The translations under genes and the position numbers were made by a program. The notes under the pieces are model-generated. The model was not told the DNA's origin. It ran no database searches and worked only from the letters and a program-made list of their open reading frames with translations. Positions 11,849 to 28,092 of a stretch of DNA of 62,550 nucleotides are shown one piece after another. Position 1 is the first letter of the stretch. Every line of letters begins with the position of its first letter. This stretch comes from Candidatus Aenigmatarchaeota archaeon (GTDB taxonomy: Archaea; Aenigmatarchaeota; Aenigmatarchaeia; QMZP01; QMZT01), in assembly GCA_041489155.1 (NCBI GenBank), contig JBGPQP010000007.1:1-62550 (forward strand), in the 5' to 3' direction.

Positions 11849-11926
11849 AGAATCGCCCGGCAGTTATTTATTAAAATAGGAATATTAATATCATTAATCT
11901 ACAGCGTCTGACGCAAGACGTTGAAT

Positions 11927-12100
11927 GCCGATGTGGCTCAGTGGTTAGAGCACCGCGCTCATATCTTTTTGGATTATGAGATTCGAGATGCGTCTTCTGA
12001 CGCATCGGTGACAGGGAAACGCGGGGGCCGGGGGTTCAATAAACCCTTTCGCACAGAGAAAACGTTTGCGGAAAGGGGTTTGAAATTCCCCCCATCGGCA
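11927..12100 (+). tRNA. tRNA-Met(CAT), probably elongator, with two introns (37/38 at about 11964-12018; 59/60 at 12041-12086)
   Basis: Acceptor GCCGATG/CATCGGC, D stem GCTC/GAGC, anticodon stem CCGCG/CGCGG with CT-CAT-A, T stem GGGGG/CCCCC; removing both inserts restores a cloverleaf; CCA not encoded. Confidence 0.88.
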
Positions 12101-12127
12101 TTCTGATGATTAGGGGGTGGATCTGGT

Positions 12128-13015
12128 ATGGCAAAAAGAGTCAAGACAAGAAAGCAGGTAGAAAAATTCGAGTCACTCAAGGATAAGACAGGCCACATGA
12201 AGAAGGAGAAGATAGACAAGGCCATCGAGTTAGAGGGCAAGAAGAGAATCGAGATAATCAAGGAAAGCGGTAAAAAGAAGGGCATACCCCTTGCATACGC
12301 TGTCCTTATCGTGATTGTGATAGCGGCGATCGGCGCTGTCCTGATTCTGATGACGCCTTCCACAACGGGCAAAAATGCAGTGAAGGCGGGCGATGTCGTG
12401 CAGATAGCCTACGCCCTTAAGCTGGCGAACGGCAACACGCTAGAACAAGGCAATTTCACCTTCAAGGTCGGCGCAGGCGAGGCGATAGCAGGCGTTGACG
12501 AGGCTGTGGTGGGGATGAAAACGGGCGAAAGGAAGACTGTGACAATCCCGCCGGAAAAGGCGTACGGCTACCCTGATCCTTTCAACATAATAGACGTCCC
12601 GCTTTACCAGGTGCTGAACATGACCGAGTCGCTGACCGTCGAGCAGTTCAACCAGTCGTTCGGCTTCGAACCTGAACTGAACAAGGCGTACCAGTTCGAG
12701 GGCATGAACTGGCCGATGAGGGTCATAACGATAGCGAACGGGACTGTCACGCTGAAGCACGAGCCCTATAACGGGTCACAATACGAGCTGAAAGACAGCT
12801 TCGGCAGCATCTACGGCACTGCGAAAGTCACCGTCCTCGGCGACCAGATAAGGATAGACAGCATGCCCATAAACGGCAGCGAGGTCTATACGGTAATCGG
12901 CCTTGGCAGAATAATCGGCTTCAATGAGACGCACATGAAGATGGATTTCAACCACAAACTCGCCGGACAAACACTGACGTTCGACCTGACGGTGCTCAAC
13001 TTCGTTCCCTACTAA
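12128..13015 (+). CDS. Membrane-anchored FKBP-type peptidyl-prolyl isomerase with large insert
   Basis: TM helix, then VKAGDVVQIAY, GVDEAVVGMKTGERKTVTIPPEKAYG, DFNHKLAGQTLTF. Confidence 0.88.
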   Translation: MAKRVKTRKQVEKFESLKDKTGHMKKEKIDKAIELEGKKRIEIIKESGKKKGIPLAYAVLIVIVIAAIGAVLILMTPSTTGKNAVKAGDVVQIAYALKLANGNTLEQGNFTFKVGAGEAIAGVDEAVVGMKTGERKTVTIPPEKAYGYPDPFNIIDVPLYQVLNMTESLTVEQFNQSFGFEPELNKAYQFEGMNWPMRVITIANGTVTLKHEPYNGSQYELKDSFGSIYGTAKVTVLGDQIRIDSMPINGSEVYTVIGLGRIIGFNETHMKMDFNHKLAGQTLTFDLTVLNFVPY

Positions 13016-13058
13016 AAAGGCATTCATTTTTGCCTTTTCCTTTTGTTTTTAAGAAATT

Positions 13059-13253
13059 TTACTTCTTGAACTTGCCGATCTTGTCTATCATGTCCACGTG
13101 CGTCAGAAACAGCGAGCGGCAGCAGTATCTTTCCAGCCCCAGTGAGTCCAAGACTGTTTTAGGCGCGGCGCCCTTCTCCACTTCGGCCTGGTATTTTTCC
13201 CACAAATGGCCGACGGGCTTGCCGCATGTCATGCATCTTATGGGTACGATCAT
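13059..13253 (-). CDS. rpoN: RNA polymerase subunit N (Rpo10)
   Basis: [12 protein letters not shown]...LGLERYCCR. Confidence 0.95.
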
Positions 13254-13286
13254 AATAACACCATCAATCAGGCAGTCTTCGTGAGT

Positions 13287-13493
13287 TTATTTATCGCTGA
13301 ACGACTTTAAAAGCTTAACTGAGACAACAAAGCTCACAAACCCTCGTTGAGAAAGTCCTTGACTATCTTTCTCGTGTTCTCCGGCATCCGGGCTATCTTG
13401 TCCGTCTCCTTCGTTCTCTTTATTTCCAGCATGTCCACATTTCTCATGTCGATCCTTATGCCCTTTCTTCTCAATCGAACACCTGAAAGACAT
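13287..13493 (-). CDS. Possible small hypothetical protein
   Basis: Open frame MSFRCSIEKK... filling the gap upstream of rpoN; no recognisable motif. Confidence 0.25.
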   Translation of the reverse strand: MSFRCSIEKKGHKDRHEKCGHAGNKENEGDGQDSPDAGEHEKDSQGLSQRGFVSFVVSVKLLKSFSDK

Positions 13494-13633
13494 TAATTGG
13501 TTGCTATCACTTAAATACTTTGCGCGCGCTTCGCGCTTCCTTCCCGTTGCATCCAATATTAATATTATAACCCTGATTATAATATAACCAAACCAGCGAT
13601 TGACACAGGCGTAACCTGTGTCCTTCGAATAAC

Positions 13634-13741
13634 GGGGCCGTAGTGTAGTCTGGTCTAGTCAACCTCGAGCTTTTGAGCTTGACGCCATGATCATTCCAGC
13701 TTGGGGTGCTGGTGACCTGGGTTCAAATCCCAGCGGCCCCA
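13634..13741 (+). tRNA. tRNA-Pro(GGG) with 33-nt D-loop intron (13657-13689, site 20b/21)
   Basis: Acceptor GGGGCCG/CGGCCCC, anticodon arm CCAGC-TTGGGGT-GCTGG, T arm CTGGG-TTCAAAT-CCCAG; BHB TGGT/GCCA with CTA and TGA bulges. Confidence 0.92.
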
Positions 13742-13780
13742 TCGAATCTTTTTAGAAAAAAGGCTCATCAAAAATAAGAA

Positions 13781-14761
13781 TTACATGACCGCGTTCTGCA
13801 AGTAATGTGAAATGGGTCTTATGCCAGTGTGAAATATATAATCTTCTGCAACCATGTGGCCGATGCCGGCTGCTTTTCTGATGTCTATGGATTGCCCGCA
13901 TTTAAGGTCGTGGATGATGCCTGCCTGCACGCCAACTGAAAATGCGTCGCCAGCGCCGGTGAAATCAGGCGGCTTGTCCTGCCTTAGCGTGCGGCCTTCA
14001 TGGTTTTTCCCATTGTACCTCAAAAGCGAGCCTTCCTTTCCCAGCGTGACGCCGACTATGCCGTCCGTGTGTTCGGATAGTTTTTTGACTATCCGCAGGG
14101 GTTCTTTTTCCCCTGTCATGTAGAGGCCTTCTTTCTCATTCACAAGGAAAAGGTCCACTTCCTCCAAGACATTAAGCATATCCCTGTAAGGCAGTTTGTC
14201 ATTTGTCAGGACGCTGGTCGTTGTCATAATGCCGGACTGGCGCAGCCTGTGAAAGGCCTCCTTCATCGGCTTTCCGTCAAAACCCGGCAGAAGCAGGGCG
14301 TAAATCACGTCGACAAAATAAGGCTTGTTTTTTTCGAGAAATCTCATCTCTTTCCTGCCCAGAGCAAAATAACCGGTGAGGCCGGAGTAATGCGCGATGT
14401 TCCTGTCGGTCTCAGTGTTTTCTATCAGCGAGAATTCCGTCGTCTCGCCCGGCATGAACCTGAGCAGTGCCGTGTCTACGCCCATTTTCTTGAATTCCTT
14501 CGCAAGGCCATGCCCGTATATGTCGTCTCCCAGGATTCCGGCAACCGCAGAACTGAAACCCAACTGCTGCATGATGGGAACCTTGTTGCCCAGCCCGCCT
14601 GCCGCGGGTTTTGGCACGTCTTCTCTTCCTATCAGCACGACCTGCCCCGGCTGCTCGTCAAAGCTCCTGACAATTCTTCGCAGGCTTTCTTGCGGAATCC
14701 GTGCATCAAGACATATCTTGCCGCAGCCCGCATAGTCTATTTTTCTCGGCGCTGGTTGCAT
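13781..14761 (-). CDS. PfkB/ribokinase-family carbohydrate kinase
   Basis: GILGDDIYG, VNEKE, VTLGKEGS, DFTGAGDAF. Confidence 0.85.
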   Translation of the reverse strand: MQPAPRKIDYAGCGKICLDARIPQESLRRIVRSFDEQPGQVVLIGREDVPKPAAGGLGNKVPIMQQLGFSSAVAGILGDDIYGHGLAKEFKKMGVDTALLRFMPGETTEFSLIENTETDRNIAHYSGLTGYFALGRKEMRFLEKNKPYFVDVIYALLLPGFDGKPMKEAFHRLRQSGIMTTTSVLTNDKLPYRDMLNVLEEVDLFLVNEKEGLYMTGEKEPLRIVKKLSEHTDGIVGVTLGKEGSLLRYNGKNHEGRTLRQDKPPDFTGAGDAFSVGVQAGIIHDLKCGQSIDIRKAAGIGHMVAEDYIFHTGIRPISHYLQNAVM

Positions 14762-14805
14762 GTTTTTTCTATAAAAATAAGTTTTAAATGACTATCGAGC
14801 AGAAA

Positions 14806-16041
14806 TCACTTGTTTCTATTTCTCCACTCCTCCACCATCGCCGGGTTCTCAAGCGCTTCCTTCATTTTTGTGAGGCCTTCCTTTATGTCAGGCAGGTCGA
14901 TGCCTGAATAAGCGAGGCGGATGTATTCGCGGTGCTCGCCGTCCATCGGCGTGCCGAAGTGCTTGCGGGTGCAGAAGGAGACGCCGGTCGTGTGGAGCAT
15001 GTATTTCCTGAAATCCTCGACTTCGGTGAAGCCGAGGTTGCGCATTGCGTCCGTTACGTCGGGGAACAGGTAGAAGGTCGAGTTGGGCTTGAATATCTTC
15101 ACGCCTTTCATCTTTTTGAGCATCCTGACGGCGAGGTTCCTGCGCCTCTTAAGGATTCTCAGTATCCTGGCGGTATCCTTCTCCGTCGCCTTCAGCGCCT
15201 CCAGCGCGCCCCACTGAATAAAATGATTGGAGCACGACTCGTCGTTGATGTTGAGGCGGTTCATCTGCTCGACCATCCATTCAGGTCCTATCGCCGCACC
15301 GAGCCTCCAGCCGGTCATGGCGAACTTCTTGGAGAATGTGTAGAGGATCATCGTCCTCTCGAACATGCCCGGGTACGAGGCGATGCTCCTGCCCTTGCCG
15401 TCGTAGTTGATGTCGAAGTACGCTTCATCACTCAGCACGAGCAGGTCGTGCTTTATGCAGATTTTCGCTAGTTCGTCCATCTCCTCGGGATGCGACTCCG
15501 CTCCCATGGGGTTGTGGTAGTTGTTGAAGATGAGGATTTTGGTTTTTGGCGTGATGAGGCTTTCGATCTGCGCCAGGTCGAGGCTGAAGCCCTTGGGGCT
15601 CATCTTGAAGCCGTAGGGCTTCGCGACCCCGCCATGGAACTGGATCTGCGATTCGTAAATCGGGTAGCCGGGATTGGGATAAAGAACTTCGTCGCCGGGA
15701 TTCATGAAGGCGAGTATGAACTTCATTATCACCGGCTTGCCGCCTGGCTGTATCGAGACGTTGTCCTTTGTCAGGCTGATGCCGCGCTGCTTTCCCGTCT
15801 CTTTCGCCAGCTCTTCCCTGAGCTCGGGAATGCCTGCGCACGGGCAGTAGCCGGTCTTGCCTTCTCTCATCGCCTTCGTGGTCGCCCTGATTATCTTGGC
15901 CGGCGTCTTTATGTTCATGTCGCCGAGATGGAACGGGTAGATCTTGTTGCCCTTGGAGGCGAATTCCCTGGCCTCGAGGGAAACGGAAAACGCTGTCTCC
16001 GTCCCGAGCCTTGACATCCTTTCCGCGACTTTGCCCATCAT
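14806..16041 (-). CDS. PLP-dependent class I/II aminotransferase (aspartate aminotransferase-like)
   Basis: NNYHNPMG, SDEAY, TFSKKFAMTGWRLG. Confidence 0.9.
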   Translation of the reverse strand: MMGKVAERMSRLGTETAFSVSLEAREFASKGNKIYPFHLGDMNIKTPAKIIRATTKAMREGKTGYCPCAGIPELREELAKETGKQRGISLTKDNVSIQPGGKPVIMKFILAFMNPGDEVLYPNPGYPIYESQIQFHGGVAKPYGFKMSPKGFSLDLAQIESLITPKTKILIFNNYHNPMGAESHPEEMDELAKICIKHDLLVLSDEAYFDINYDGKGRSIASYPGMFERTMILYTFSKKFAMTGWRLGAAIGPEWMVEQMNRLNINDESCSNHFIQWGALEALKATEKDTARILRILKRRRNLAVRMLKKMKGVKIFKPNSTFYLFPDVTDAMRNLGFTEVEDFRKYMLHTTGVSFCTRKHFGTPMDGEHREYIRLAYSGIDLPDIKEGLTKMKEALENPAMVEEWRNRNK

Positions 16042-16068
16042 AAAAAAACCTCCTAAAGCGTTGCGCCT

Positions 16069-17088
16069 TTACTTTTTCTTTCTTCTGAGCACGTCCTCGA
16101 CAGCCTTTATGATATCTGTGCTCTTGAGATTGAATTCCACCATGAGCTGGTCTGGCTCGCCCGACTCGCCGAAGCGGTCCAGCACGCCGACGCGCTTCAT
16201 GGGAACCGGATAATGCTCAACCACGACCTCCGCTATCGCGGAGCCGAAGCCAGCTGTGATCTGGTGCTCTTCCGCGGTCACGATCGCGCCAGTCTCCTTC
16301 GCCGCCGTGATTATCGCTTCCTCGTCTATCGGCTTGATGGTGTGGAGATTTATCACGCGCGCCTCAATGTTGCGCTTCTCCAGCTCCTTCGCCGCGATAA
16401 GCGCCTCGTAAACCATCGGGCCGCACGCGAAAATCGCGACATCGTTGCCGAAGCGGAACGTTTCCGCTTTTCCGAAACGGAACGGCGTTTCCGGCGTTGT
16501 GATGACAGGGACTTTTTCCCTGCCGAAACGTATGACCATCGGGCCGTGTATGCGGGCGGATTCAAGCGTCGCTTTTTTCGTCTCCCAGTAATCTGTCGGG
16601 ACGACGACCTTCATGTTCGGCAGGACGCGCGAGAGCGCGATTTCCTCGAGCGACTGGTGCGTCGCGCCATCCGCTCCTACGGAAACTCCGCCGTGCGCGC
16701 TGGCGATCTTGACGTTGAAGTCGCCGTAGGCGACTGTCGTGCGCATCTGGTCCCATGCGCGGCCGGTGCAGAATACGCCGTACGTGCTGACGTACGGAAT
16801 CTTGCCCACTGCTGCCAGCCCTGCAGCGAGACCCATCATGTCCTGCTCGGAAATCCCGACTTCTACGAAGCGGTCAGGATATTTATCAGCGAACCACTGG
16901 GCGCGCGTCGAATCGGAAAGGTCGGCGCAGAGCACGACGATCCTCTGGTTGTCTTTGCCCATTTCCACCAAGCCGTGGCCATAACCATCTCTTGTCGGTA
17001 TCTTTTCCACATTATCGTAAATGTTGGCCGCCAGCTTCATGTCCGGGTTCAGGCCGGATTTCTGCGAAGTGTGCGAAGACATAAACAT
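16069..17088 (-). CDS. Transketolase, C-terminal subunit
   Basis: EVGISEQ, GADGATHQ, TAEEH. Confidence 0.92.
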   Translation of the reverse strand: MFMSSHTSQKSGLNPDMKLAANIYDNVEKIPTRDGYGHGLVEMGKDNQRIVVLCADLSDSTRAQWFADKYPDRFVEVGISEQDMMGLAAGLAAVGKIPYVSTYGVFCTGRAWDQMRTTVAYGDFNVKIASAHGGVSVGADGATHQSLEEIALSRVLPNMKVVVPTDYWETKKATLESARIHGPMVIRFGREKVPVITTPETPFRFGKAETFRFGNDVAIFACGPMVYEALIAAKELEKRNIEARVINLHTIKPIDEEAIITAAKETGAIVTAEEHQITAGFGSAIAEVVVEHYPVPMKRVGVLDRFGESGEPDQLMVEFNLKSTDIIKAVEDVLRRKKK

Positions 17089-17094
17089 TACCTC

Positions 17095-17931
17095 TCATGC
17101 GCAGCCGTATGCCTGCGCTTCTAGCTCCTTCAGTGCCTTTTCGGCTTCCTCTTTCTTCGGCGCTTTGCCGTGCCATTCCGCCTTGTTCTCCATGAAAGAG
17201 ACGCCTTTGCCTTTCACGGTGTTTGCAAGTATGACCGTCGGCCTGCCTTTTGTGTGCTCGGCTTCCCCGAAGGCGCTGAGCAACTGCTCGATGTTATGGC
17301 CGTCGACTTCGATCGCGTGCCAGCCGAAGGCCTCCCACTTCGCCTTCAGCGGATCGATGCACATCACGTCTTTTGTCCATCCGTCTATCTGGAGCTTGTT
17401 GACGTCGACGACGCCGCAGAGGTTGTCGAGCTTGTAATGAGCGCCTGACATCGCGGCTTCCCATATCTGGCCTTCCTGCAACTCGCCGTCGCCCATCAGG
17501 CAGTAGACGCGCTCGTTGCGGTGGTCCATCTTAAGACCTATCGCCATTCCCGCTGCGATGGAAAGGCCCTGGCCAAGCGAGCCTGAAGAGGTCTCGAGGC
17601 ATTCGAGCTTGAGGCGATGCGGGTGGCCCTGAAGCCTTGAACCAAGCTTGCGCAGCGTGATCAGTTCGTCGACCGGGAAGTAGCCGCGCCTGGCGAGCGT
17701 CGCATAAAGCACAGGGCACACGTGCCCTTTCGAAAGAATGAACCTGTCCCTCTCGTCCCATTTTATGTTCTTGGGGTCGTGCTTCATGACGTTGAAGTAA
17801 AGGGAAACGAGGATTTCGACAGAAGAAAGCGATCCTCCCGGGTGCCCGCTGCCAGCGGCACAGGTCATCCTGATTATGTCCTTCCTGACGTCATTTGCGA
17901 TTTTCTTCATGTCCTGGACGCTATGCTTCAT
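17095..17931 (-). CDS. Transketolase, N-terminal (TPP-binding) subunit
   Basis: GHPGGSLS, SKGH, LQGHP, GDGELQEG. Confidence 0.93.
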   Translation of the reverse strand: MKHSVQDMKKIANDVRKDIIRMTCAAGSGHPGGSLSSVEILVSLYFNVMKHDPKNIKWDERDRFILSKGHVCPVLYATLARRGYFPVDELITLRKLGSRLQGHPHRLKLECLETSSGSLGQGLSIAAGMAIGLKMDHRNERVYCLMGDGELQEGQIWEAAMSGAHYKLDNLCGVVDVNKLQIDGWTKDVMCIDPLKAKWEAFGWHAIEVDGHNIEQLLSAFGEAEHTKGRPTVILANTVKGKGVSFMENKAEWHGKAPKKEEAEKALKELEAQAYGCA

Positions 17932-18044
17932 CGGGTATCACTATTTCGGGAAGATATAATCTTTGATTCCCGTAATTTAAGCTTTACGGTTTGCCTGTTT
18001 CCATTTCTACCCCTTTATTTATGCGGCTGATGCAAAAATATTAT

Positions 18045-19067
18045 ATGAAACCTGATTTCGCAAGGAGGATCAAAGCGCTCAGGAAGGCGATGGCGGAAAA
18101 GGGCCTGGATGTAATAATGACGTCCAGCCAGGATGAAATCCTCTATTACACGGGCTACCGCGGCCTGAGGGACGACAGGCTTTTCATGCTCTTCCCCCTG
18201 AACGGCAGGCCGAAGCTCATAGTTTCCTCGCTCTCCAACGAAGCGAAGAAGTTCTATCCGGAAATAGTGTATATGAAGGAATTCAAGGACGTGCTCGCAT
18301 GCATGAAGCCGTACAAGACGATAGGCTACGACGAGCGCGTCATCGACATCATGGTTTTCCATGAGATAAAAAAGCTGAAGCCAGGCATCAGGCCTGCGAC
18401 ATCGCTGCTTGAGGCTCAGAGAATCGTCAAAGACGCTTACGAAATAACGCAGCTGAAGAAGGCGGCACAGGCGACAGGCAAGGCCATGTCCGCCGTCAGC
18501 GGGAAGCTCGCTGGCAGGACCGAGAAGCAGATCGCCGACGCGCTGGAGATAGAATACAGGAAACTGGGAGCAGAGAGCGCCTACGAGCCTCTGGTATGCG
18601 CTGGCAAAAACACGCAGTTCATTCATCATGCCGCCGGCCCGAAGGTCATCGCTAAGAACGACGTGGTGATGATAGACGCGGGGGCGAGAGTGAACGGCTA
18701 CTGCTGCGACGTGACCAGAATGTTCTTCAGGAAAATCAACGCGAAGCACAGGCAGATGTACGAGGACGTCAAGCAGATTAAAAGCGAACTGACCTCGCGC
18801 ATACGAGCAGGCGTTAGCTACAAGGAGATAGAAAATCTTTACAGGAGCCTGCTCGCGCAGAAAGGGTACAAGGTGTTCCACAGCTTCGGCCACGGCGTCG
18901 GCCTCTCCGTCCACGAGCCGGCTGGCGAGGTGCTGCAGGAAAACGCGGTCATCACCGTCGAACCAGGAGTCTACATAAAGAACTTCGGCGGCGTAAGGAT
19001 AGAAGATACAATAGTGGTAAAAAAAGGTAAGGCAGACGTTCTCTCAAGGTCGATAAGGCTTCTGTGA
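18045..19067 (+). CDS. Xaa-Pro aminopeptidase / prolidase (M24)
   Basis: DAGARVNGYCCDVTR, HSFGHGVGLSVHEP, TVEPGVY, GVRIED; start approximate. Confidence 0.9.
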   Translation: MKPDFARRIKALRKAMAEKGLDVIMTSSQDEILYYTGYRGLRDDRLFMLFPLNGRPKLIVSSLSNEAKKFYPEIVYMKEFKDVLACMKPYKTIGYDERVIDIMVFHEIKKLKPGIRPATSLLEAQRIVKDAYEITQLKKAAQATGKAMSAVSGKLAGRTEKQIADALEIEYRKLGAESAYEPLVCAGKNTQFIHHAAGPKVIAKNDVVMIDAGARVNGYCCDVTRMFFRKINAKHRQMYEDVKQIKSELTSRIRAGVSYKEIENLYRSLLAQKGYKVFHSFGHGVGLSVHEPAGEVLQENAVITVEPGVYIKNFGGVRIEDTIVVKKGKADVLSRSIRLL

Positions 19068-19075
19068 GTTCCGGC

Positions 19076-19378
19076 TTATTCCTCTACTGCCTCTGATTTT
19101 TCGCCGGATTTTTCCTCGTCAGCGACCGGAAGCGATATGTGCTTTATCAGGATGACATCGCCGATCGACTCGACCATGGGGAACGGGATGATTACGCCTT
19201 TCTTGCTGCCGAGCATCTTCGAGATGTAGGATTCCTTGGCTGCGCGCACTACAAGGGAGCGGATCTTGAACCTCTTGAGGTCGCATTCGACGTCCTCGAC
19301 CTTGCCGCAGAACATGCCCTTGTTGGTGAACACGTCTTTGCCGTATGTTTCAGAAATGCTCGATACTTTTATCGCCAT
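19076..19378 (-). CDS. PRC-barrel domain protein (CdpB-like)
   Basis: YGKDVFTNKGMFCGKVEDV...IPFPMVESIGDVILI. Confidence 0.85.
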   Translation of the reverse strand: MAIKVSSISETYGKDVFTNKGMFCGKVEDVECDLKRFKIRSLVVRAAKESYISKMLGSKKGVIIPFPMVESIGDVILIKHISLPVADEEKSGEKSEAVEE

Positions 19379-19499
19379 ACACCCACCTCTCCGTCTCGCT
19401 TTTCAGTAAATTTTATCTGTTATATGATTTAAGCGGAGGCTTTATAAAGTTTGTGATTTTAAGGCGCTAATATTTAAACCATGAATCCAATAACAGAGC

Positions 19500-20129
19500 A
19501 TGAGGCAGCTGTTTTCCCTCGACGTGGAAACGCTGGGCGAGGCCTGCGGCATTTTCGCAGGCGATGGCGGCATTTACAGGACGGCCAGGAGCTTTGTCGT
19601 CGAGGTCAGGGGCGGGAAGGACGAAGCGCATTACTACACCCACACCGTCAGGCCGCTCTTCGAGGAGCTTTTCTCCAAGAAACTGGAAATCACCAAAAGG
19701 AAATATGTGGGAGGGCATGTAATAGGCATACGCGTGTGCGGCGGGGAAGCGATGCGCCTCTTCCATGTCTTCCTCGAGTTCCCGGTCGGCAGCAAGACCC
19801 ATGCCCTCCGCATGCCGAAGATAATCTTCAACAACATGGAATACTGGAAGCCGTACGTGCGCGGCGTTTTCGACTCGCGCGGTTCGCTCTACCTGCGGCG
19901 CACGGGGAAGGGATACATGAATCCAGTTATAGATATCTCCAGCCCGTCTATTTCGCATCTTGTGCAGCTGAGGGAGATCCTGCACGACATCGGCTTCACC
20001 TTCTGGCTCGAGAAACGCAACCGTAAAATAAGGATCGCCGGCCGGAAGAACGTGGAAAGATTTTTTAAAGAGATAAAACCACATAATATTGCGAAAACAA
20101 AAAAGTTCGCTGAAATAATGCTGAGATGA
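19500..20129 (+). CDS. Free-standing two-motif LAGLIDADG endonuclease-like protein
   Basis: Motif 1 EACGIFAGDGGI, motif 2 YVRGVFDSRGSL; C-terminal ERFFKEIKPHN. Confidence 0.82.
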   Translation: MRQLFSLDVETLGEACGIFAGDGGIYRTARSFVVEVRGGKDEAHYYTHTVRPLFEELFSKKLEITKRKYVGGHVIGIRVCGGEAMRLFHVFLEFPVGSKTHALRMPKIIFNNMEYWKPYVRGVFDSRGSLYLRRTGKGYMNPVIDISSPSISHLVQLREILHDIGFTFWLEKRNRKIRIAGRKNVERFFKEIKPHNIAKTKKFAEIMLR

Positions 20130-20235: not shown

Positions 20236-20310
20236 CTCTCTTCTTTTTTGTTTCTGGGTCTCAAGACGCGTGTTTTTTATTTATTAGGGGGTTCGCCTGA
20301 ATTATATAAT

Positions 20311-20700
20311 ATGATAGACCTCAACTTCAAGGGGTTGAGCACCGAAGCGACGATAGCAAAGGTGCTTATTCTCGTGGGTCTGCTGCTGAAGATAGTCGGC
20401 GTGATAGTAATATTCGGAGGCCTCGTGCCGGTGACGAATGTCAGCATGACTCTCGGAATAGCGCCTTTCACATGGGTCTTGGCAGGAGCTTTGACCGCTT
20501 TCGGCCTGCTTGCCATAGCGGGCATAATAGTCCTCTGGAAAGGCTTGGGCAAGTTCAAGCAGAAGGACTATTCTGGAGCGGCCATATTCGCCCTCATAGC
20601 GGCATTCCTTCCGCCCATCGGCGCACCGGAGCTCATAGGAGCAGTTCTTCTCCTGATAGGCCCTGAACTCAAGGGTTCCCTAATTGCCAAGAAAAAATAA
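20311..20700 (+). CDS. Hypothetical membrane protein
   Basis: About 130 aa, 3-4 hydrophobic segments. Confidence 0.7.
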   Translation: MIDLNFKGLSTEATIAKVLILVGLLLKIVGVIVIFGGLVPVTNVSMTLGIAPFTWVLAGALTAFGLLAIAGIIVLWKGLGKFKQKDYSGAAIFALIAAFLPPIGAPELIGAVLLLIGPELKGSLIAKKK

Positions 20701-20888
20701 ACGCAAAACATGGGGCTTGGGAGAAAAGAAAGGATGGTTTGATTTTTTTATTTTATCTTTTCCAGTCTATGCTATCCTTGTTTATTTTATTTGTAAAACA
20801 ACAAAGGCTAGAGACACAACCAAAGGCAGTATGATTCTTTTTATATATGTTATTTTAAGTAACCCGGTAACAAACTTATATCGATATT

Positions 20889-21000
20889 GCGCCAATAGTC
20901 TAGCCTGGTAGGACACGGGCTTCCCAAGCCTGTGGCCCGGGTTCAAAGGACGCATGAAGCAGACTTCGTCTGCTTCCGTCTGAAGCTCCCGGTTGGCGCA
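20889..21000 (+). tRNA. tRNA-Gly(CCC) with 39-nt T-loop intron (20948-20986, site 59/60)
   Basis: Acceptor GCGCCAA/TTGGCGC, anticodon arm CGGGC-TTCCCAA-GCCTG; BHB TTCA/TGAA with AAG and GCT bulges restores TTCAAAT. Confidence 0.92.
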
Positions 21001-21104
21001 TTATTTTGTTCTAAAAACTCCGGAAGATGTTCTTGCATCCAATTACTCAGAACTGGGTTTTAGCGGAATTTTTAAAGCTAATTCCGAAGACTTTAAAGAT
21101 ACGC

Positions 21105-21548
21105 ATGTCTCGGGTTGTAAGGCTTTTCGGCAAAGGGGCTGAGAAATACATCCAAGAAGAGAAACCCGCAGCCTGCCCGTATCCTTTAGACAAACTTGGA
21201 GAATACGTGGGGAAGCAGATAAAAATCAAGTATCTCAACTGTGACATTTTCAAGGAAGAAACAGAGACGCTGAAATTTTTCCCGGGCAGGGATTTTTTCT
21301 ACATAGGGGATGAGATTGGTTATCACATGGTGAACTGGGACCGAGTAGACAGCAATGGGAGAACCTACAAGGTGCTGTCCATCAAAGTTCAGAAGGAAGA
21401 TGGCACGTGGGAAAAGATTTACAAGGCAATCGATGTGGAGCCGCAACTTATGATAAAAGCCAAGGAAGTGACTGCAGAAGCGGAACGAAATAAGAAAGGA
21501 AAGACTGGTGGTCTTGCATCAGGCGCTCCTTCTCTGGTCATGCCGTGA
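21105..21548 (+). CDS. Hypothetical protein
   Basis: Open frame MSRVVRLFGKG... with protein-like composition. Confidence 0.6.
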   Translation: MSRVVRLFGKGAEKYIQEEKPAACPYPLDKLGEYVGKQIKIKYLNCDIFKEETETLKFFPGRDFFYIGDEIGYHMVNWDRVDSNGRTYKVLSIKVQKEDGTWEKIYKAIDVEPQLMIKAKEVTAEAERNKKGKTGGLASGAPSLVMP

Positions 21549-21652
21549 AACCCCGATGCAAAAAACCTATATATTGAACAGACATTATTAATATAATATT
21601 AGCGCTCCATGAAATTCTGTTGGGGGATGGGGAGTCTTGGGGTAGGTTTTCT

Positions 21653-23512
21653 ATGACGTTCAACCCGGACCTTCTTGAGAAAGAGGGCAAGAAGGTCGTC
21701 TTGCTGGGGAACGAGGCGATTGCGAGAGGCGCGATGGAAGCGGGCATGGGCCTGTGCGCGTGCTATCCTGGAACGCCGAGCTCCGAGGTAGGGATTGCGC
21801 TTTCTCCGCTTGCAAAACAGGTGGGCTTCTATTTTGAGTGGAGCACGAACGAGAAAGTTGCGGTCGAGGTCTGCACCGGAGCCGCGTTTTCCGGCGTGCG
21901 CTCGCTTTCCGCGATGAAGCATTTCGGCCTCAACGTAGCGAGCGACTCGCTGCTGCCGATTGCCTACACTGGCGTACCGGGGGCGATGGTGATAATGGTC
22001 GCGGACGACCCGCTCGGCCACAGCTCCGCCCAGACCGAGCAGGACACCAGATTTTACGCGAGAATGGGCAAGATACCCATGATCGAGCCGGCGAACGCGC
22101 AGGAAGCGAAGGACTACACGAAGCTCGCTTTCGAGATATCCGCGAAGTACCAGCTGCCCGTCTTGCTGCGGACGACGACTATGGTTTCCCACTCCATCGG
22201 AACTGTCAAGCTGGGCAGCATGCCTGCGACGCTGAAGACGAAAGGGAAATTCGTGAAGGACCTGGAAAGGTTCAACTGCATCCCGCCTAGGCTGCAGACG
22301 CTGCATCATGCCCTCAACAAGAAGCTCGACCAGATCGAGACCGCATACGAATACCTCAACAAAGCCGAGGGCGCGGGCAGCACAGGCATACTTACGAGCG
22401 GGGTCTCGTACCAATATGCGAAGGAGCTGGGACTCAAAGGCGTCAGGATAGGCAAGATAGGAATGACGTATCCGATATCAAGGAAATTCGTCGAGGGCTT
22501 CATCCGCGGCCTGAAGAAGCTGATTGTTCTTGAGGAACTCGAGCCAGTGGTGGAGAGCTTTGCAAGGATGGCGGCGAAGGACGTGAACCCATCGCTCGAG
22601 ATCCACGGCAAGGACATCCTTTCCCGCGTGGGCGAATACAACCCCGAAATGATTCTGCAGGCCATAGCGCCGATACTGAAGATCAAGAACCCGGATTTCA
22701 CCATGCATGAAATGCATCTCAAGAAGATACAGCTGCCAGTGAGGAAGGCCGTGCTATGCCCGGGCTGTCCGCACAGGTCGACCTTCTACGCGGTGAAGAA
22801 GGTGATGGGCGAGCAGACCATATGGGGCGGCGACATCGGATGCTACGTCCTCGGGATACAGGAGCCTTTCAAGATGCAGGACTACATAATTTCCATGGGA
22901 TCGAGCATCGGGATCACGCACGGCATACAGATGGTGAGCGACCAGAAGGTCGCGCTGTTCATCGGCGACTCGACGTTCTTCCATGCAGGCCTATCAGGCC
23001 TCGTGAACACGAAGGCTCACGGCACGAAGCCTCTGGTAGTGATACTGGACAACGGCATCACGGCTATGACCGGCCACCAGCCGAACCCCGGAAGCGACTT
23101 CACCGGCATGGGTGACAAGAGGGAGCCGATGAAAATCGAAGATATCGTCAGGTCCTTCGGCATCAGCAACATGCGCGTCGTAAATGCTTTCAGTCAGAAA
23201 GAGCTGCAGGAGGCGGTAAAGGAACTGACATCTAAAGACGAAATCGGAGTCCTTATCTCCCGCGGGCTCTGCAGGCTTTACATGCGGCGTTTGCTGAGGC
23301 GGCAGGGCAGGGAATTCACGAAGTTCCAGATAGCTTCTGACAAGTGCAAGAAATGCCTCATGTGCGTCAAGCAGTTCGCGTGCCCTGCGATAATGCATGA
23401 GGGCGACAAGGTCTACATACGCGAAGACATATGCTGGGGCTGCGGCGTGTGCGCGCAGATATGCCCGGCTGGCGCGATAGTGCCGGCAAAAATGAAGGTG
23501 AAGAAAAAATGA
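21653..23512 (+). CDS. iorA: Indolepyruvate:ferredoxin oxidoreductase alpha subunit
   Basis: LGNEAIARG, YPGTPSSE, NEKVA, LCPGCPHR, GDSTFFH, C-terminal 2x[4Fe-4S] motifs. Confidence 0.93.
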   Translation: MTFNPDLLEKEGKKVVLLGNEAIARGAMEAGMGLCACYPGTPSSEVGIALSPLAKQVGFYFEWSTNEKVAVEVCTGAAFSGVRSLSAMKHFGLNVASDSLLPIAYTGVPGAMVIMVADDPLGHSSAQTEQDTRFYARMGKIPMIEPANAQEAKDYTKLAFEISAKYQLPVLLRTTTMVSHSIGTVKLGSMPATLKTKGKFVKDLERFNCIPPRLQTLHHALNKKLDQIETAYEYLNKAEGAGSTGILTSGVSYQYAKELGLKGVRIGKIGMTYPISRKFVEGFIRGLKKLIVLEELEPVVESFARMAAKDVNPSLEIHGKDILSRVGEYNPEMILQAIAPILKIKNPDFTMHEMHLKKIQLPVRKAVLCPGCPHRSTFYAVKKVMGEQTIWGGDIGCYVLGIQEPFKMQDYIISMGSSIGITHGIQMVSDQKVALFIGDSTFFHAGLSGLVNTKAHGTKPLVVILDNGITAMTGHQPNPGSDFTGMGDKREPMKIEDIVRSFGISNMRVVNAFSQKELQEAVKELTSKDEIGVLISRGLCRLYMRRLLRRQGREFTKFQIASDKCKKCLMCVKQFACPAIMHEGDKVYIREDICWGCGVCAQICPAGAIVPAKMKVKKK

Positions 23513-24096
23513 TGTGCAACATGCTTATTACCGGAGTGGGGGGAGAAGGCGTCCTAGTCACGTCGGTCATTGTTTCCAAGGCTGCGAACATCGAAGGCTA
23601 CGAAGTTCGCGGAACGCAATTGCACGGCCTTGCACAGAGGGGCGGGGCGATACCGGCGCACGTCAGGTTCGGGACGCGCGTATATTCGCAGCTCATCCCG
23701 AGGGGGCAGGCGGATCTGCTGCTGGCGCTCGAGCCGCTTGAGGCAGCGAGGTTCTGCTACTTCGCGAGCAAGGAGAGGACGAACATCATCGTTGACAACT
23801 ACCCGCTCAAGCCGGTGTATGCGAGCCTGTTCGACCAGCCATATCCGCCGGCGCAGAAGCTCACGGAAATGATTTCTCCTTTCGCCAAGAGCCTGTACTT
23901 CATAAACTCCTCTACCATATGCGAGGAGAAGCTGGGCGACCCGGTCTACGGGAACGTCATGCTACTCGGCTTCGCCATCGCGAAGGGTATGCTGCCGCTG
24001 AAGAAGGAATCGCTGGTGCAGGCCATAAAGGCGACCGTCAAAGAGCCGGAGAAGGACCTCCAGGCCCTGAGGATGGGCATGGAATACAGAGGCTGA
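23509..24096 (+). CDS. iorB: Indolepyruvate:ferredoxin oxidoreductase beta subunit
   Basis: TGVGGEG, HGLAQRGG, ALEPLEAAR; overlaps iorA stop. Confidence 0.92.
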   Translation: MMCNMLITGVGGEGVLVTSVIVSKAANIEGYEVRGTQLHGLAQRGGAIPAHVRFGTRVYSQLIPRGQADLLLALEPLEAARFCYFASKERTNIIVDNYPLKPVYASLFDQPYPPAQKLTEMISPFAKSLYFINSSTICEEKLGDPVYGNVMLLGFAIAKGMLPLKKESLVQAIKATVKEPEKDLQALRMGMEYRG

Positions 24097-24124
24097 ACCG
24101 ATTCTGTTTCTGAAAAAAAAGAAC

Positions 24125-26449
24125 CTATTCTCTAAGGTAGCCCCAATTGTGCAGGCGGTCGCTGTCCTCGAACCAGCGGTCGCCAACGTCCTTCCTGTAG
24201 AACATGTTGGGTATCAGGATGTTGTTTATCCTGTTGTACATCTGCGTCTGTGCCTGCTTCATCGTCGGACCGGTTCCGACGACGATAAGGACGACTCCGG
24301 CGTGGCCTGTGATGAGCCACTCGCCATTTACCAGCCTCACATCCTCTATGTGTATGCCTTCCATGTGCGGCTTCTTGAAGACGATGACGGCGTCCTTGGA
24401 ATTCGTGTTGAAGGTTTCCTCGTCGGTGAAAGGGAACGGAGGGACCACGACGCGGACACCGACCTGGAAACCGCTCTTCACCTTCAGTTTGTGGCCATTT
24501 CCCTTTGCGAGTTCGTAAAGGAACTCGCCTATCGGTGTTATCATGCCTTCCTGCTGGATGCTGATGGTCGGGTAGCCGAATCTCGAGGTGAACTCCAGCG
24601 GGTAGATGCCATAGCTGTTCACTATGCAGTTTATGTCTATGTAGCCGATGTAGCCTTCCTCGCGCAGCTTGGGTTCCATCTTCTTTAGCGTGGCGTTGAA
24701 TATCTTGTTGGGCATGGACCAGAACATCGAGGTGTTGCCGCACCAGAAGGGCTTGCCGTTCCTTCTGACATACATTATATGGTTCTTCACGGTGGCGCAG
24801 TACACCTTTCCGGAATAATTTATCATTTTAATATCCCTCTTGTCAAGCCACGAGTCGAGCTTCTTCACTCTTTCGAGGACTTCGTACTGAACGCCTGAGC
24901 AGTCAGCGAAATGGTCCTTTATCCATCGCTTCCCTTCGCGCTGCCTTTTCTTTATGATGCCGACTTTCCCGGTCTTCAGCAGGAGTTCCTGGATGCCGTC
25001 CGCCATTAGCTTCGAACAGGTGTAGAATATCCTGAAGCCTTTCATCTGAGTGGCGTCGCCGAGCGCAAACCATTTCAGGAAGATGTCTATCTGCCTCGGG
25101 CTCAGCTCCCTGATGAATGAAGGGACGTGCTTGTCATGCGCCTTGCCGAAAAGCCCGAGATAAGTCGAAAGCTGCTTGCCATAGGCGTAGAATTCGCCGT
25201 CTCCCCTGGTGAAAGTGAAGGGAAGCGTTTTGAGCATGGATGATATCATCTCGGTCTTCTCCGGGGTCTTCTGGGCGATGCTTACCTTGCCGTATGACGC
25301 AGAACCCTCAGCCAGCCATACGCCCATGAAAGCTAGCCAGTCGTCCATGGGAATTTCCAGTTCTCCCGTTTCCTGGAACAGAACCTGCCTTCCGGAGTAG
25401 TGGCCAACCGGGACGGAAGGAAGGGTGAAATATTGCTGCTCCTGCCCGGTCCATGTGCCGGTCCTCTTGATGACTGACTGACATTGCAGGTCGCGGGCCT
25501 TGACGAACCCGAATTTGTTCGCCCTGTTCCTCGCATCCCATTGCTTCGCGACGTACATGTTATGGTCCGGAGTGACCATGATGTCCAGCGTCTGGTTCTG
25601 TACCGAAACGAGCTCCCTGTGGTGATCGAAGGAAACCAAAACTTCCGGCCTGTGGAATTCGATTGCGTGGCTTGAGGGACTAAGGGTGCATATCTGGTCG
25701 TTATGATCCAGATCCCTGAAAAGCTTCCACCCGTTCTGCGTCAGGACTTCCGTCTGGTCGTCATAGCAACCCATCTCGCCGGTCGAGGGGCCGATGTTGC
25801 CCGGGAAGAGCTTCTTGTGCTCGAAGTTGACGTTTATCGGGTAGATGAACTCCTTGCCGTTGAAGAAAGCGCCGACCGCCACTTCGACTCCGCTGATTTT
25901 CTTCTGCAGCTGAAAGACCTTTATCCTTTCAGACCATGCCTTCTTGTAGTGCTCCAGGACCTGAATGACATCCTTGCCGTCGTCTTCTTCACCGACGAAA
26001 AGCAGCTGCTTTATGTTCTGGGCCTCGCCGCTCGGCTTGATGACGTATTTGCCGGGATGCTCCTGGACGAAGTTTATGGCGTCGTCGAACGAGGTGAAGT
26101 TCCAGCTGGGTATGGTCGTCACTCCCGCCTTTTTTAGTTCGTCCTGGCCGAAGCCCCTGTCATCCTCGAGCATGTCCGTGTAAGGCGTTCCGCCAACAAC
26201 CAGCTTGCCTTCCTGCCTGAGCTTCTGCGCAATCGTACCCTGACCGAGGACGTCATCGAATACGATGACATCCGCCCAGTCCGCATCCTTCCTCCAGTCG
26301 TCCGTCTTGGAAACGAAGCCGTCGCCTATGCTCCTTTCTGTCGGGCATTCAATAAAATATTTGGCCTCGTGGCCTTCCTTAATCACCTGCCACGCAATAT
26401 CGCTAATCAGCGCATCTAAGGAGACAAAAAGAAACTTTTTCTTTTCCAT
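24125..26449 (-). CDS. purD: Phosphoribosylamine-glycine ligase-like ATP-grasp enzyme interrupted by an intein
   Basis: LEDDRGFG, YVIKP, FEHKKLFPGNIGPSTGEMG|TS, LEFTSRFGYP. Confidence 0.82.
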   Translation of the reverse strand: MEKKKFLFVSLDALISDIAWQVIKEGHEAKYFIECPTERSIGDGFVSKTDDWRKDADWADVIVFDDVLGQGTIAQKLRQEGKLVVGGTPYTDMLEDDRGFGQDELKKAGVTTIPSWNFTSFDDAINFVQEHPGKYVIKPSGEAQNIKQLLFVGEEDDGKDVIQVLEHYKKAWSERIKVFQLQKKISGVEVAVGAFFNGKEFIYPINVNFEHKKLFPGNIGPSTGEMGCYDDQTEVLTQNGWKLFRDLDHNDQICTLSPSSHAIEFHRPEVLVSFDHHRELVSVQNQTLDIMVTPDHNMYVAKQWDARNRANKFGFVKARDLQCQSVIKRTGTWTGQEQQYFTLPSVPVGHYSGRQVLFQETGELEIPMDDWLAFMGVWLAEGSASYGKVSIAQKTPEKTEMISSMLKTLPFTFTRGDGEFYAYGKQLSTYLGLFGKAHDKHVPSFIRELSPRQIDIFLKWFALGDATQMKGFRIFYTCSKLMADGIQELLLKTGKVGIIKKRQREGKRWIKDHFADCSGVQYEVLERVKKLDSWLDKRDIKMINYSGKVYCATVKNHIMYVRRNGKPFWCGNTSMFWSMPNKIFNATLKKMEPKLREEGYIGYIDINCIVNSYGIYPLEFTSRFGYPTISIQQEGMITPIGEFLYELAKGNGHKLKVKSGFQVGVRVVVPPFPFTDEETFNTNSKDAVIVFKKPHMEGIHIEDVRLVNGEWLITGHAGVVLIVVGTGPTMKQAQTQMYNRINNILIPNMFYRKDVGDRWFEDSDRLHNWGYLRE
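24734..25768 (-). mobile_element. 345-aa intein with LAGLIDADG endonuclease domain in the PurD-like gene
   Basis: N-terminus CYDDQTEVLTQNGWK, block B VTPDHNM, EN motifs GVWLAEGS and WFALGDA, C-terminus YCATVKNH...WCGN followed by Thr+1. Confidence 0.92.
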
Positions 26450-26677
26450 GTTCTATCAGGCTGTACGCCAATTTTGACAAATTCTGACAAATTTGCTTAC
26501 ATTAATATTTATGTTCAAGCACATTTAAAAAACATGATGTTTTACATTCGTAAAATACTGCCGTCTGCCGGGGACGGCCGGGCAAAATCGTTGCCTGACG
26601 AACATGCCATGATATCTTTTATAAACTCCTGAGTAATATTTGAATATAATTTTCATCTGTTTTGTGGGGGTGTCTTG

Positions 26678-27865
26678 ATGAAAGGCCAGAAAAACCGGCT
26701 GCAATTCCTCAAGGACGAGCTTGAAGGCTTGAAGAAGGAGAATCTTTTCACCACCCTGCCCGTGCTAAGCACGCCGCAGGGAGCAAGGGTTGTAATAAAC
26801 GGCAAGAAAGTGCTCACGCTTTCTACGAATAATTATCTCGGTTTCGCCAACCATCCGAGGCTCGCCGCCGCTGCGAAGAAGGCGATGGACAGGTGGGGCT
26901 TCGGCTGCGGCGCCGTAAGGCAGATCGCAGGTACGATGGAAATACACAACGAGGCGGAGGAGATGCTTGCCAGGTACAAGCACACTGAGGCGTCGCTCAT
27001 TTTCGTAGCAGGCATCGCCGCCAACCGCGGCACGATACAGGTGCTCATGGGCGAGGGCGATGTCATCATAAGCGACGAACTCAACCACGGCAGCATCATC
27101 GACGGAGTTCGCCTTACGAAGTCGGAGAAGAAGATCTACCCGCATCTGGACATGGCCGGGCTGGAGAAGGCGCTGAAGGAGTCGCAATCCGCGAGAAGGC
27201 GCCTGGTCGTAACGGACGGCGTGTTCAGCATGGACGGCGACATCGCTCCGCTTGACCAGATAGCCGAACTCGCGGAAAAATATGACGCGATAACAATGGT
27301 CGACGACGCGCACGGGGATGGCGTCCTCGGAAAAGACGGGAGGGGCATAGTTGACCACTTTAATCTTCACGGACGGATCGATATTGACATGGGCACGCTT
27401 TCGAAGGCGTTCGGTTGCCTGGGAGGATATATCGCGGGCCGCCAGGAGCTGCGCGATTATCTGATCAACCGCGCCCGCTCTTTCATCTTCACAACCGCGC
27501 ACCCGCCCTGCGTGACCGCAGCGATAATGGAGGCGCTGAGAATCGTTCAGGACGAGCCGCAGCATCTCAAGCAGCTGTGGGACAACACGAAATTCTTCAA
27601 GGAAGGGTTGCGCGACTTGGGTTTCAATATCGGCCACAGCCAGACGCCGATCACGCCCGTGATAGTCGGCGAGAGCGCGAAGGCTCAGCAGCTGAGCAAG
27701 GCGCTGTTCGAGCACGGCGTATTCGTCAAGCCGATATTATACCCACTCGTATCGAAGGATTCCGCGCGCGTGAGGAACATCGTGACAGCGGAGCACACAA
27801 AAGACGATTTGGACTTCGCGCTCAAGACATACGAGAAGGTAGGGAAGGACCTGAAACTTATATAA
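26678..27865 (+). CDS. kbl: Glycine C-acetyltransferase (2-amino-3-ketobutyrate CoA ligase)
   Basis: NNYLGFANHP, SDELNHGSIIDG, DGVFSMDGD, VDDAHG, GTLSKA; neighbour of tdh. Confidence 0.88.
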   Translation: MKGQKNRLQFLKDELEGLKKENLFTTLPVLSTPQGARVVINGKKVLTLSTNNYLGFANHPRLAAAAKKAMDRWGFGCGAVRQIAGTMEIHNEAEEMLARYKHTEASLIFVAGIAANRGTIQVLMGEGDVIISDELNHGSIIDGVRLTKSEKKIYPHLDMAGLEKALKESQSARRRLVVTDGVFSMDGDIAPLDQIAELAEKYDAITMVDDAHGDGVLGKDGRGIVDHFNLHGRIDIDMGTLSKAFGCLGGYIAGRQELRDYLINRARSFIFTTAHPPCVTAAIMEALRIVQDEPQHLKQLWDNTKFFKEGLRDLGFNIGHSQTPITPVIVGESAKAQQLSKALFEHGVFVKPILYPLVSKDSARVRNIVTAEHTKDDLDFALKTYEKVGKDLKLI

Positions 27866-27935
27866 CTTCAACTTTCCTTATTTTATAGTCAAGCGACAGC
27901 TTGAACTATACAACGAGACTGTCTTTCGCTGGTAT

Positions 27936-28092
27936 GGGCCGGTAGTCTAGCGGTTAAACCCTTTTGCTGACGCAAAAGCGTTTACGGAAAAGTTCCGTAT
28001 ATGACGTCGCGCTTACAACGCGAAGGCCGCAGGTTCGATGGGCGCATGAAGCAGGTTTCACCTGCTTCCGTTCGAGATTCCTGCCCGGCCCA
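27936..28092 (+). tRNA. tRNA-Val(TAC) with two introns (D-loop 27956-28000, 45 nt; T-loop 59/60 28040-28078, 39 nt)
   Basis: Acceptor GGGCCGG/CCGGCCC, anticodon arm TCGCG-CTTACAA-CGCGA, T stem GCAGG/CCTGC; BHB helices GCGG/CCGT and TTCG/CGAG. Confidence 0.9.

Follow-up and report, generated by a model that had tools for sequence, protein, structure and literature searches.

Two tRNA introns of an Aenigmatarchaeota archaeon as probable members of a widespread archaeal intron family built on a conserved hairpin module

The window analysed here is a stretch of 62,550 nucleotides from a Candidatus Aenigmatarchaeota archaeon (GenBank assembly GCA_041489155.1, contig JBGPQP010000007.1, positions 1 to 62,550 of the forward strand). 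It contains a tRNA-Met(CAT) gene with an intron in the T-loop and a tRNA-Val(TAC) gene with an intron in the D-loop, which a sequence-only reading had described as the same intron at two different tRNA positions, carrying a re-matched exon-pairing segment. Our results, all of which are computational, indicate that the two are probably separate members of a widespread archaeal family of bulge-helix-bulge (BHB) introns based on one conserved module of ~36 nt. Below, genomes, loci, contigs and DNA runs are cited by our working numbers (G, L, C and X), this genome being G000.

The two tRNA genes and their predicted introns

The interrupted genes and their introns are as follows.

11927..12100, + strand: tRNA-Met(CAT) gene with two introns, read from the sequence; its 5' 112 nt align with the orthologues of G004 and G003 at 83-84%.
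~11964..12018, + strand: canonical 37/38 intron of tRNA-Met, ~55 nt, outside the module family; it lies after CTCATA (anticodon CAT) and before A-CGCGG.
12041..12086, + strand: T-loop (59/60) intron of tRNA-Met, 46 nt, after TTCAAT (covariance model R1, 44.1 bits, E 2.3e-8), made up of the module (12041-12075), the inner-helix strand GGGGTT (~12075-12080), the exon-matched TGAA (12081-12084) and the bulge AT (12085-12086).
27936..28092, + strand: tRNA-Val(TAC) gene with two non-canonical introns, called by ARAGORN with the introns removed; the intron-free G004 orthologue has the same exons.
27956..28000, + strand: D-loop (20/21) intron of tRNA-Val, 45 nt, after GCGGTT (R1, 60.7 bits, E 1.2e-12), made up of the module (27956-27991), the inner-helix strand GTT (27992-27994), the exon-matched CCGT (27995-27998) and the bulge AT (27999-28000).
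28040..28078, + strand: T-loop (59/60) intron of tRNA-Val, of a second, different hairpin family; a strict BHB candidate.

Both intron strings quoted in the earlier reading are present at 12041-12086 (46 nt) and 27956-28000 (45 nt), and the end-to-end alignment that it proposed was reproduced with MAFFT, in which 32 of 47 columns were identical. The similarity of the two introns is beyond chance. When the Val intron was subjected to 5000 dinucleotide-preserving shuffles, the local score of 29 was reached by none of them (0/5000; 13.5 +/- 2.5) and the global score of 33 by two (2/5000; 11.0 +/- 4.3). A blastn-short search with both introns as queries revealed no link even between the pair, a silence that is uninformative at such length. 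Contigs from four DNA runs were mapped to positions 11500-28500 of the window; those of X2, X3 and X4 hold the intron regions unchanged, and no joint listed over this interval corresponds to precise excision of either intron, rare variants being dropped by contigs. In run X5, a single contig of low depth has 27957 connected to 27993 by TA, which would make a Val D-loop insert lacking the hairpin; another organism is a possible source.

Splice junctions were predicted by a genome scan for the BHB, defined as a 4-bp central helix between four exon nucleotides, ending 2 nt before the cut, and four intron nucleotides, ending 2 nt before the intron end, plus flanking helices. The scan recovered the Met intron at the quoted borders with a central helix of 4/4, an outer helix of 3/3 and an inner helix of 3/3 pairs; the Val intron was also recovered at its quoted borders, in a relaxed form with 4/4 central (one G.U), 2/3 outer and 3/3 inner pairs. 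The claim that each intron is complementary to its own exon was thereby borne out, with TTCA (12035-12038) pairing with TGAA (12081-12084) in Met, and GCGG (27950-27953) pairing with CCGT (27995-27998), one G.U pair included, in Val. In minimum-free-energy folds the Met RNA shows the BHB, whereas the Val RNA favours the module hairpin instead. The common AT ending had been noted as a shared feature; the letters are correct, but they are merely the two intron-side nucleotides of the 3' bulge.

Comparison with G004, a member of the same genus that has a syntenic tRNA-Val without introns and a tRNA-Met without the T-loop intron, confirms the predicted junctions of the Met and Val introns to within 1-3 nt of sliding. 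Its empty sites read GCGGTT/ATGACG, GGTTCGAT/TCCTGC and GGGTTCAAT/TCCCAC (here and below, a slash stands at the joint). After both predicted Val introns had been removed, ARAGORN returned tRNA-Val(tac). On the spliced Met sequence it gave a wrong call, the canonical intron having been missed by the BHB scan, and the evidence for this gene is the G004 orthologue. Homologues of that canonical intron are present in the orthologues of G004 and G003. Rfam gave only a weak partial match to the tRNA-Met gene because the introns interrupt it, and ARAGORN at default settings found no tRNA in the untouched window; genes with such introns thus escape standard tRNA finders.

The enzymes expected to process these introns are encoded in the same genome. 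A gene for RtcB ligase is present on contig C1, and the window itself contains the endonuclease gene:

38508..39698, + strand: tRNA-splicing endonuclease of 396 aa, of the three-unit epsilon type, expected to cut the introns (Pfam tRNA_int_endo in two stretches, and tRNA_int_endo_N); its product matches PDB 4FZ2 chain A over the full length (E 6e-110).

With two 3-nt bulges around a 4-bp helix, a normal tRNA on removal and the processing enzymes encoded, both introns have the features of BHB introns, and their splicing is predicted on this basis.

The second Val intron (28040-28078) has the hairpin-family core GCAGGTTTCACCTGC. This core is also found at ~20940-20986, in the T-loop intron of a tRNA-Gly(CCC), at G000:C6:28739-28770 and C6:11012-11051, and at loci in at least six related genomes.

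The hairpin module, its adapter and its copies

The module common to the Met and Val introns is ~36 nt long and has the form AAACCCTTTTGC-loop-GCAAAAGCGTTTACGGAAAA. A 12-bp hairpin, in which one C.C mismatch is fixed, precedes the tail ACGGAAAA; the extended unit can be written as AA(A/G)CCCTTTTGC, a loop of 3-8 nt, and then GCAAAAGCG(T/C)TT(A/G)CGGAAA(A/G). The hairpin is well supported in an alignment of 27 sequences, where 90% of the cells were paired, three pairs had changed on both sides, and none of 500 shuffles reached the covariation score. In a larger set, the first three bases of the module were found to co-vary with the bases before the tail (TAA...TTA, GAA...TTC, TGA...TCA and AAG...CTT). 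The tail and the C.C mismatch are near-invariant across phyla. No Rfam family covering the module was found, either at the gathering threshold on the window or in E-value mode on 37 loci. The module is also placed in a fixed manner relative to the predicted cut. Of 76 usable copies, 21 had a strict BHB beginning exactly at module base 1, compared with 1-10 at other offsets from -15 to +10, and the peaks at +12 to +15 stem from the hairpin itself.

Each of the two introns consists of the module and a short 3' adapter, which contains an inner-helix strand complementary to the first bases of the module, 4 nt complementary to the exon and two bulge bases; the 4 nt pair with the four exon bases 2 nt upstream of the splice site to form the central helix. 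The inner-helix strand appears to travel with the module, since it tracks the class of the module's 5' end: GGTC was found downstream of 6 of 10 GACCC copies compared with 9 of 56 AACCC copies, and GGTT downstream of 30 of 56 AACCC copies compared with 1 of 10 GACCC copies, these being counts over related copies and given without a formal test. The site-specific part of the adapter is only its last 6 nt, for example TGAA-AT in Met, CCGT-AT in Val of this genome, CCGC-AG in Val of G003 and G002, CTGC-AA in both Pro D-loop copies and CGGA-AA in Cys. An adapter for T-loops, such as TGAA, can pair with TTCA as well as with TTCG loops by using G.U pairs, and re-matching would therefore be needed for moves between loops but not among T-loops. 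Palindromic T-loops (TTCGAA) and D-arms (AGCT) make it tempting to regard the adapter as a direct target duplication. We rejected this possibility for the two introns, since comparison of filled with empty sites places the entire adapter within the insert, and neither the Met nor the Val adapter directly repeats the exon.

Further copies were sought with a two-intron profile, a three-member profile, an 82-sequence profile and covariance model R1, the counts obtained with the model being among the best candidates scored per genome. The earlier reading had proposed to look for more copies, and the searches revealed third to fifth copies in this genome and more in its relatives. The two outcomes that it had named as refuting its view, a similarity no better than that of shuffles and a lack of further members, were not obtained. 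Five significant matches were present in this genome (1.13 Mb), all within tRNA introns, four of them strong and in the sense orientation and one antisense:

27956-27991, + strand: module of the tRNA-Val D-loop intron, the best of the five (60.7 bits).
12041-12075, + strand: module of the tRNA-Met T-loop intron, the second-best (44.1 bits).
Contig C6: module in the D-loop of tRNA-Pro(CGG), at a D-loop position unlike that of Val (two-intron profile).
Contig C5: module in the 59/60 T-loop of tRNA-Cys(GCA) (three-member profile).
G000:C4:39060-39272: antisense module with its inner-helix strand, within the canonical ~100-nt intron of tRNA-Gln(TTG) (profile and covariance model).

The three-member profile also gave weaker matches to a tRNA T-loop intron on C2 and to the tRNA-Gln intron on C4 (opposite strand). 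Similar introns are thus present in different tRNA species and at different positions of one genome, in the D-loops of Val and Pro(CGG) and the T-loops of Met and Cys. The orthologous tRNA-Pro(CGG) intron was found in a public record, L017, titled Candidatus Aenigmarchaeota.

Within the same order, 32 of the 41 genomes examined gave matches to the covariance model, at 0-31 copies per genome. Under stricter filters, a sample of the phylum had it in 54 of 151 genomes, with a distribution patchy by family (12/14 in one, 0/10 or 1/31 in others). When one genome for each prokaryote species was scanned for the exact pattern, 23 stretches were obtained. All 19 with archaeal titles had the full hairpin, compared with none of the four with bacterial titles, which look like chance matches; the archaeal titles were Iainarchaeum, Aenigmatarchaeota, Nanoarchaeota, Methanomicrobia and Methanobacteriota bins, Nitrosotalea and unclassified archaea.

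The genomic settings of 81 distinct copies were surveyed, with flanks judged partly by eye and with Rfam. Sixteen of them lie within rRNA genes according to Rfam (seven in 16S, eight in 23S and one in 5S), all 16 in the sense orientation. The 16S site GGATTAGAT/ACCC is occupied in three genomes, and one 23S gene holds five inserts; rRNA inserts of related genomes include L098:2465-2646 (G013), L090, L095 and L122 (16S), and L085 and L118 (23S). Many other copies, based on flanks read by eye, lie in the D-loops, anticodon loops, variable arms and T-loops of tRNA genes. Removal of the module-bearing intron let ARAGORN recover a tRNA for 28 of the 81 copies, some of the calls being doubtful. Some copies are located directly after a tRNA 3' end or at the end of a gene, and in the latter setting the first three bases of the module form the stop codon. 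Two copies, in L092 and in the tRNA-Gln of this genome, are antisense within tRNA introns. The search suggested in the earlier reading, covering tRNAs, rRNA, intergenic DNA and viruses, yielded copies in tRNA and rRNA genes, outside RNA genes and on one viral contig.

A few of these settings differ in their arrangement. On the viral contig, L024, the module (296-328) is flanked by the 3' end of a tRNA gene and a second, directly repeated copy of this end, resembling the duplication at an integration site. In L126, L097, L132 and L115 (G033 and G030), tandem repeats of the first 14 nt of a tRNA, the module and a spacer precede an intact tRNA, and partial tandem copies of the 3' half of the module are present as well. 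In L004 and L128, copies of the module border on matches to archaeal RNase P RNA and are on the opposite strand.

The most uniform set of copies was found in G127, which has 41 module matches. Twenty of the 41 were fetched (L137-L156), and all 20 have the same 43-nt module and unique flanks. Eighteen of these are elements of 105 nt, consisting of the 43-nt module and a 62-nt extension (the printed extension is identical in 17 and has a single change in one); of the other two, one is a 96-nt variant and one ends at a contig end. The left flanks are A/T-rich and variable. No conserved short target sequence was found beside the hairpin end at the G127 copies, and the tRNA sites also differ mutually. 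When an empty site of the element was sought in the congener G029, one query had no match and the other matched only the conserved flanking gene. Near-identical copies with unique flanks, present in G127, were not seen in the genome of the window; G127 shows an apparent recent burst. In 5 of 19 G127 copies, an upstream reading frame of at least 54 codons ends on the first TAA of the element.

Gain, loss and possible routes of spread

Presence/absence polymorphism at orthologous tRNA sites, which the earlier reading had proposed to look for, was found at Val, Met and Pro(GGG). The tRNA-Val gene has 0-2 introns depending on the genome: a D-loop and a T-loop intron here, a D-loop intron only in G003, a D-loop and an anticodon-loop intron in G002, and none in G004; elsewhere, G001 has a different small D-arm intron and G014, of another genus, a different T-loop intron. 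The D-loop intron of Val is accordingly present in G003 and G002 and not in G004, G001 or G014, and its T-loop intron (28040-28078) is not in G003, G002 or G004. Among the three congeneric orthologues recovered, the T-loop intron of Met is present here only, G003 and G004 lacking it and keeping the canonical intron. The third polymorphic gene lies between the other two:

13634..13741, + strand: tRNA-Pro(GGG), without a module copy here (Rfam tRNA, 50.7 bits), 1.6 kb downstream of tRNA-Met.

Among its syntenic orthologues, that of G004 carries the module in the D-loop, and those of G002 and G003 carry it in the T-loop. The gene that follows tRNA-Val is 73-88% identical between these genomes, indicating that the intron events are not very recent, and a single-locus tree of the genus from 1.3 kb downstream of tRNA-Val lacked the strength to tell gains from losses. 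Most simply, the Val intron would be old and have undergone losses, the Met intron would be a gain of this lineage, and at least two events would have occurred at Pro(GGG).

These comparisons bear on the possibility that one intron jumped between the Val D-loop and the Met T-loop within this genome and then changed its 4-nt exon-pairing segment. The two introns lie on the same contig, align colinearly from end to end and have a common start and end, and the Met T-loop intron, being confined to this genome among the congeneric orthologues, may be a recent gain. However, only 68% of the alignment columns are common to the pair, the Met module falls short of the Val copy by 16.6 bits (44.1 vs 60.7), and the Val intron, common to G002 and G003, is hence old. 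Moreover, each module has closer matches elsewhere. Outside this genome, the Met copy is best matched by the T-loop intron that G002 and G003 have in the neighbouring tRNA-Pro(GGG) (77-78%), and the Val module is closer to copies of other genomes, being 94% identical to one at position 37/38 of a tRNA-Gly in G028, which belongs to another family. The Met and Val introns are not direct copies of each other, and we regard a jump of this kind as quite improbable. Thus, of the mobile mini-intron family envisaged from the sequence alone, the multiple copies, the different tRNA positions and the helix matched to each intron's own exon are supported, whereas the view of one of the two introns as a transposed copy of the other is not supported.

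The same data bear on whether the module moves at all. It could be a selected functional RNA motif, such as a protein-binding or folding element, that has passed by vertical descent with losses and without mobility. The near-invariance of the tail and the C.C mismatch across phyla, the co-varying hairpin and the fixed placement at the 5' end of introns are consistent with such a motif. It fits poorly with copy numbers that range from 0 to 41 between related genomes, with the near-identical copies and unique flanks of G127, with an orthologous gene that has the module in different loops among congeners, and with the existence of antisense copies, and we consider descent without mobility very unlikely. 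Function and mobility of the module are not mutually exclusive and can coexist.

For the family of introns that we favour, the spread may be explained by a DNA-level mechanism. In this model, the module would always start at the 5' splice site and the 3' adapter would complete the BHB, which would be cut by the epsilon-type endonuclease of the genome and rejoined by RtcB ligase. The module may represent the conserved end of a non-autonomous mobile element, which would be inserted into DNA by some enzyme; copies landing in tRNA or rRNA genes would survive only where the adapter permits them to be spliced out. Such selection, together with later compensatory change (for example, CCGT here compared with CCGC in G003), could yield the helix that had appeared to be re-matched. 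Insertion at the DNA level is argued from the antisense copies, the copies at gene ends and outside RNA genes, and the G127 elements.

Alternatively, the introns could spread at the RNA level by reverse splicing, in which an excised, circular intron docks by its 4-nt segment on a hairpin loop of a mature tRNA or rRNA and recreates the BHB, the endonuclease cuts both strands, RtcB ligates the intron to the exons, and the product is copied into DNA. Several features would fit this route: the 5' splice site falls exactly on module base 1, no target duplication was found, each copy has a 4-nt complementarity to its exon, orientation in tRNA and rRNA genes is overwhelmingly sense (16/16 in rRNA), an endonuclease of a broad-specificity type is encoded along with RtcB, and the 59/60 site in the 7-nt T-loop, as read from the sequences, has the same 4+2/1 geometry as the canonical 37/38 site. 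Against it, a reverse transcriptase (PF00078) was detected in no more than 6 of the 41 related genomes and did not track copy number; this genome gave no match, nor did 35 of the 41 searched, among them the four highest-copy ones. Two antisense copies lie within tRNA introns, other copies lie after genes, and the 105-nt elements of G127 have unique non-RNA flanks. To our knowledge, reverse splicing by the endonuclease and ligase has no biochemical precedent. We think this route unlikely.

Several points weigh against spread by DNA-level insertion and against the family as we describe it. No mobilising enzyme was found: a Y1 transposase (PF01797) was detected in only 6 of the 41 related genomes and did not track copy number; none of the four highest-copy genomes has it, it was not found in G000, G033, G035, G027 or G013, and G010 has two matches and no module. 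No target-site duplication was found at five filled/empty comparisons, where there was only a micro-repeat of 0-3 nt, and no shared flank repeat or target-site duplication was seen by eye at the G127 copies. The rRNA copies are all in the sense orientation (16/16) and the tRNA copies nearly all so, which selection or an RNA-level route would both explain. The very high conservation across phyla could mark RNA function rather than mobility. In addition, the Val intron may have been ancestral in the genus and have undergone two precise losses, the single-locus tree being weak. Finally, the taxon labels of metagenome bins may be wrong, and related genomes are not independent samples.

Taken further, the family might belong to an undescribed class of small mobile elements of DPANN and other archaea, which makes tRNA and rRNA introns without target duplication and brings or acquires a guide-like 4-nt pairing with the target loop; we put this forward tentatively, as a possibility that we rate below even. 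In its boldest version, spread would occur by reversal of the endonuclease/ligase reaction once a circular intron has docked on a loop of 7 nt.

Comparison with known systems

Hairpin-ended elements that insert without target duplication are known from the IS200/IS605 family and its miniature derivatives and from the REP elements with their RAYT transposases. Like these, the module has a short imperfect end hairpin, no target-site duplication and many dispersed copies. Unlike these, it has no conserved target tetranucleotide and only one conserved end, and Y1 is present in 6 of the 41 genomes only. A miniature inverted-repeat or DDE transposon would share the many near-identical copies with unique flanks seen in G127 but differs in that no target-site duplication was found here. 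The eukaryotic introners, which are transposon-derived spliceosomal introns, provide a conceptual parallel only, namely a mobile element tolerated through its removal as an intron; in the present case a protein endonuclease and a ligase would act, RNA genes serve as hosts and the element is far smaller.

In the ARMAN-2 EndA structure paper (PMC3488258), as far as its accessible text goes, the epsilon2 enzyme is described as having broad substrate specificity, and 4FZ2 is named twice. The accessible text of a 2018 study (PMC5829648) gives the epsilon2 type as known only from Micrarchaeum and a close relative, and associates special loops of the endonuclease in DPANN lineages with a larger number of disrupted tRNA genes. 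The epsilon-type endonuclease reported here is from an Aenigmatarchaeota-like genome, to be set against that range of Micrarchaeum and one relative. ARMAN-2, or Candidatus Micrarchaeum, resembles the present host in being a tiny DPANN archaeon with many introns at non-canonical positions, and the endonuclease found here matches the 4FZ2 chain over its full length. In contrast to what we observed, the accessible portions of the two papers describe no common intron module and no intron mobility for ARMAN.

The way in which archaeal tRNA introns are gained has been a standing question since the transposition proposal of 2010. Similar introns at different positions of different tRNAs were published for Thermoproteales in that year (Fujishima et al. 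2010, Mol Biol Evol 27:2233, as summarised in PMC4033280 and PMC4090602); the earlier reading had pointed to the proposal of intron transposition in this group. On the Asgard archaea, the accessible part of a 2026 preprint reports that no copying route or route of intron arrival was found, with Thermoproteales as a positive control. A search of the full-text literature, with subscription journals largely outside it, found no published account of the module, of DPANN intron families or of such a 5S rRNA intron. The family described here supplies a recognisable conserved unit, filled and empty orthologous sites, the same gene struck in different loops, copies outside RNA genes and an apparent recent burst, and together these features make the mechanism of spread experimentally approachable. 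If the mobile-element reading is true, archaeal intron gain would become directly testable.

As far as the accessible text of PMC4033280 and PMC4090602 shows, the transposed introns of Thermoproteales are, like those described here, of the BHB type, and close relatives differ in the introns that they have. The present host, in contrast, is a DPANN archaeon, its closest named public records being titled Aenigmatarchaeota, which makes this a parallel case. The family also differs from the Thermoproteales set in its short cross-phylum module, in its occurrence in 16S, 23S and 5S rRNA genes, after tRNA 3' ends and at gene ends, and in the 105-nt copies of one genome. The phenomenon is thus known from Thermoproteales, and the cross-phylum module is new to the literature searched.

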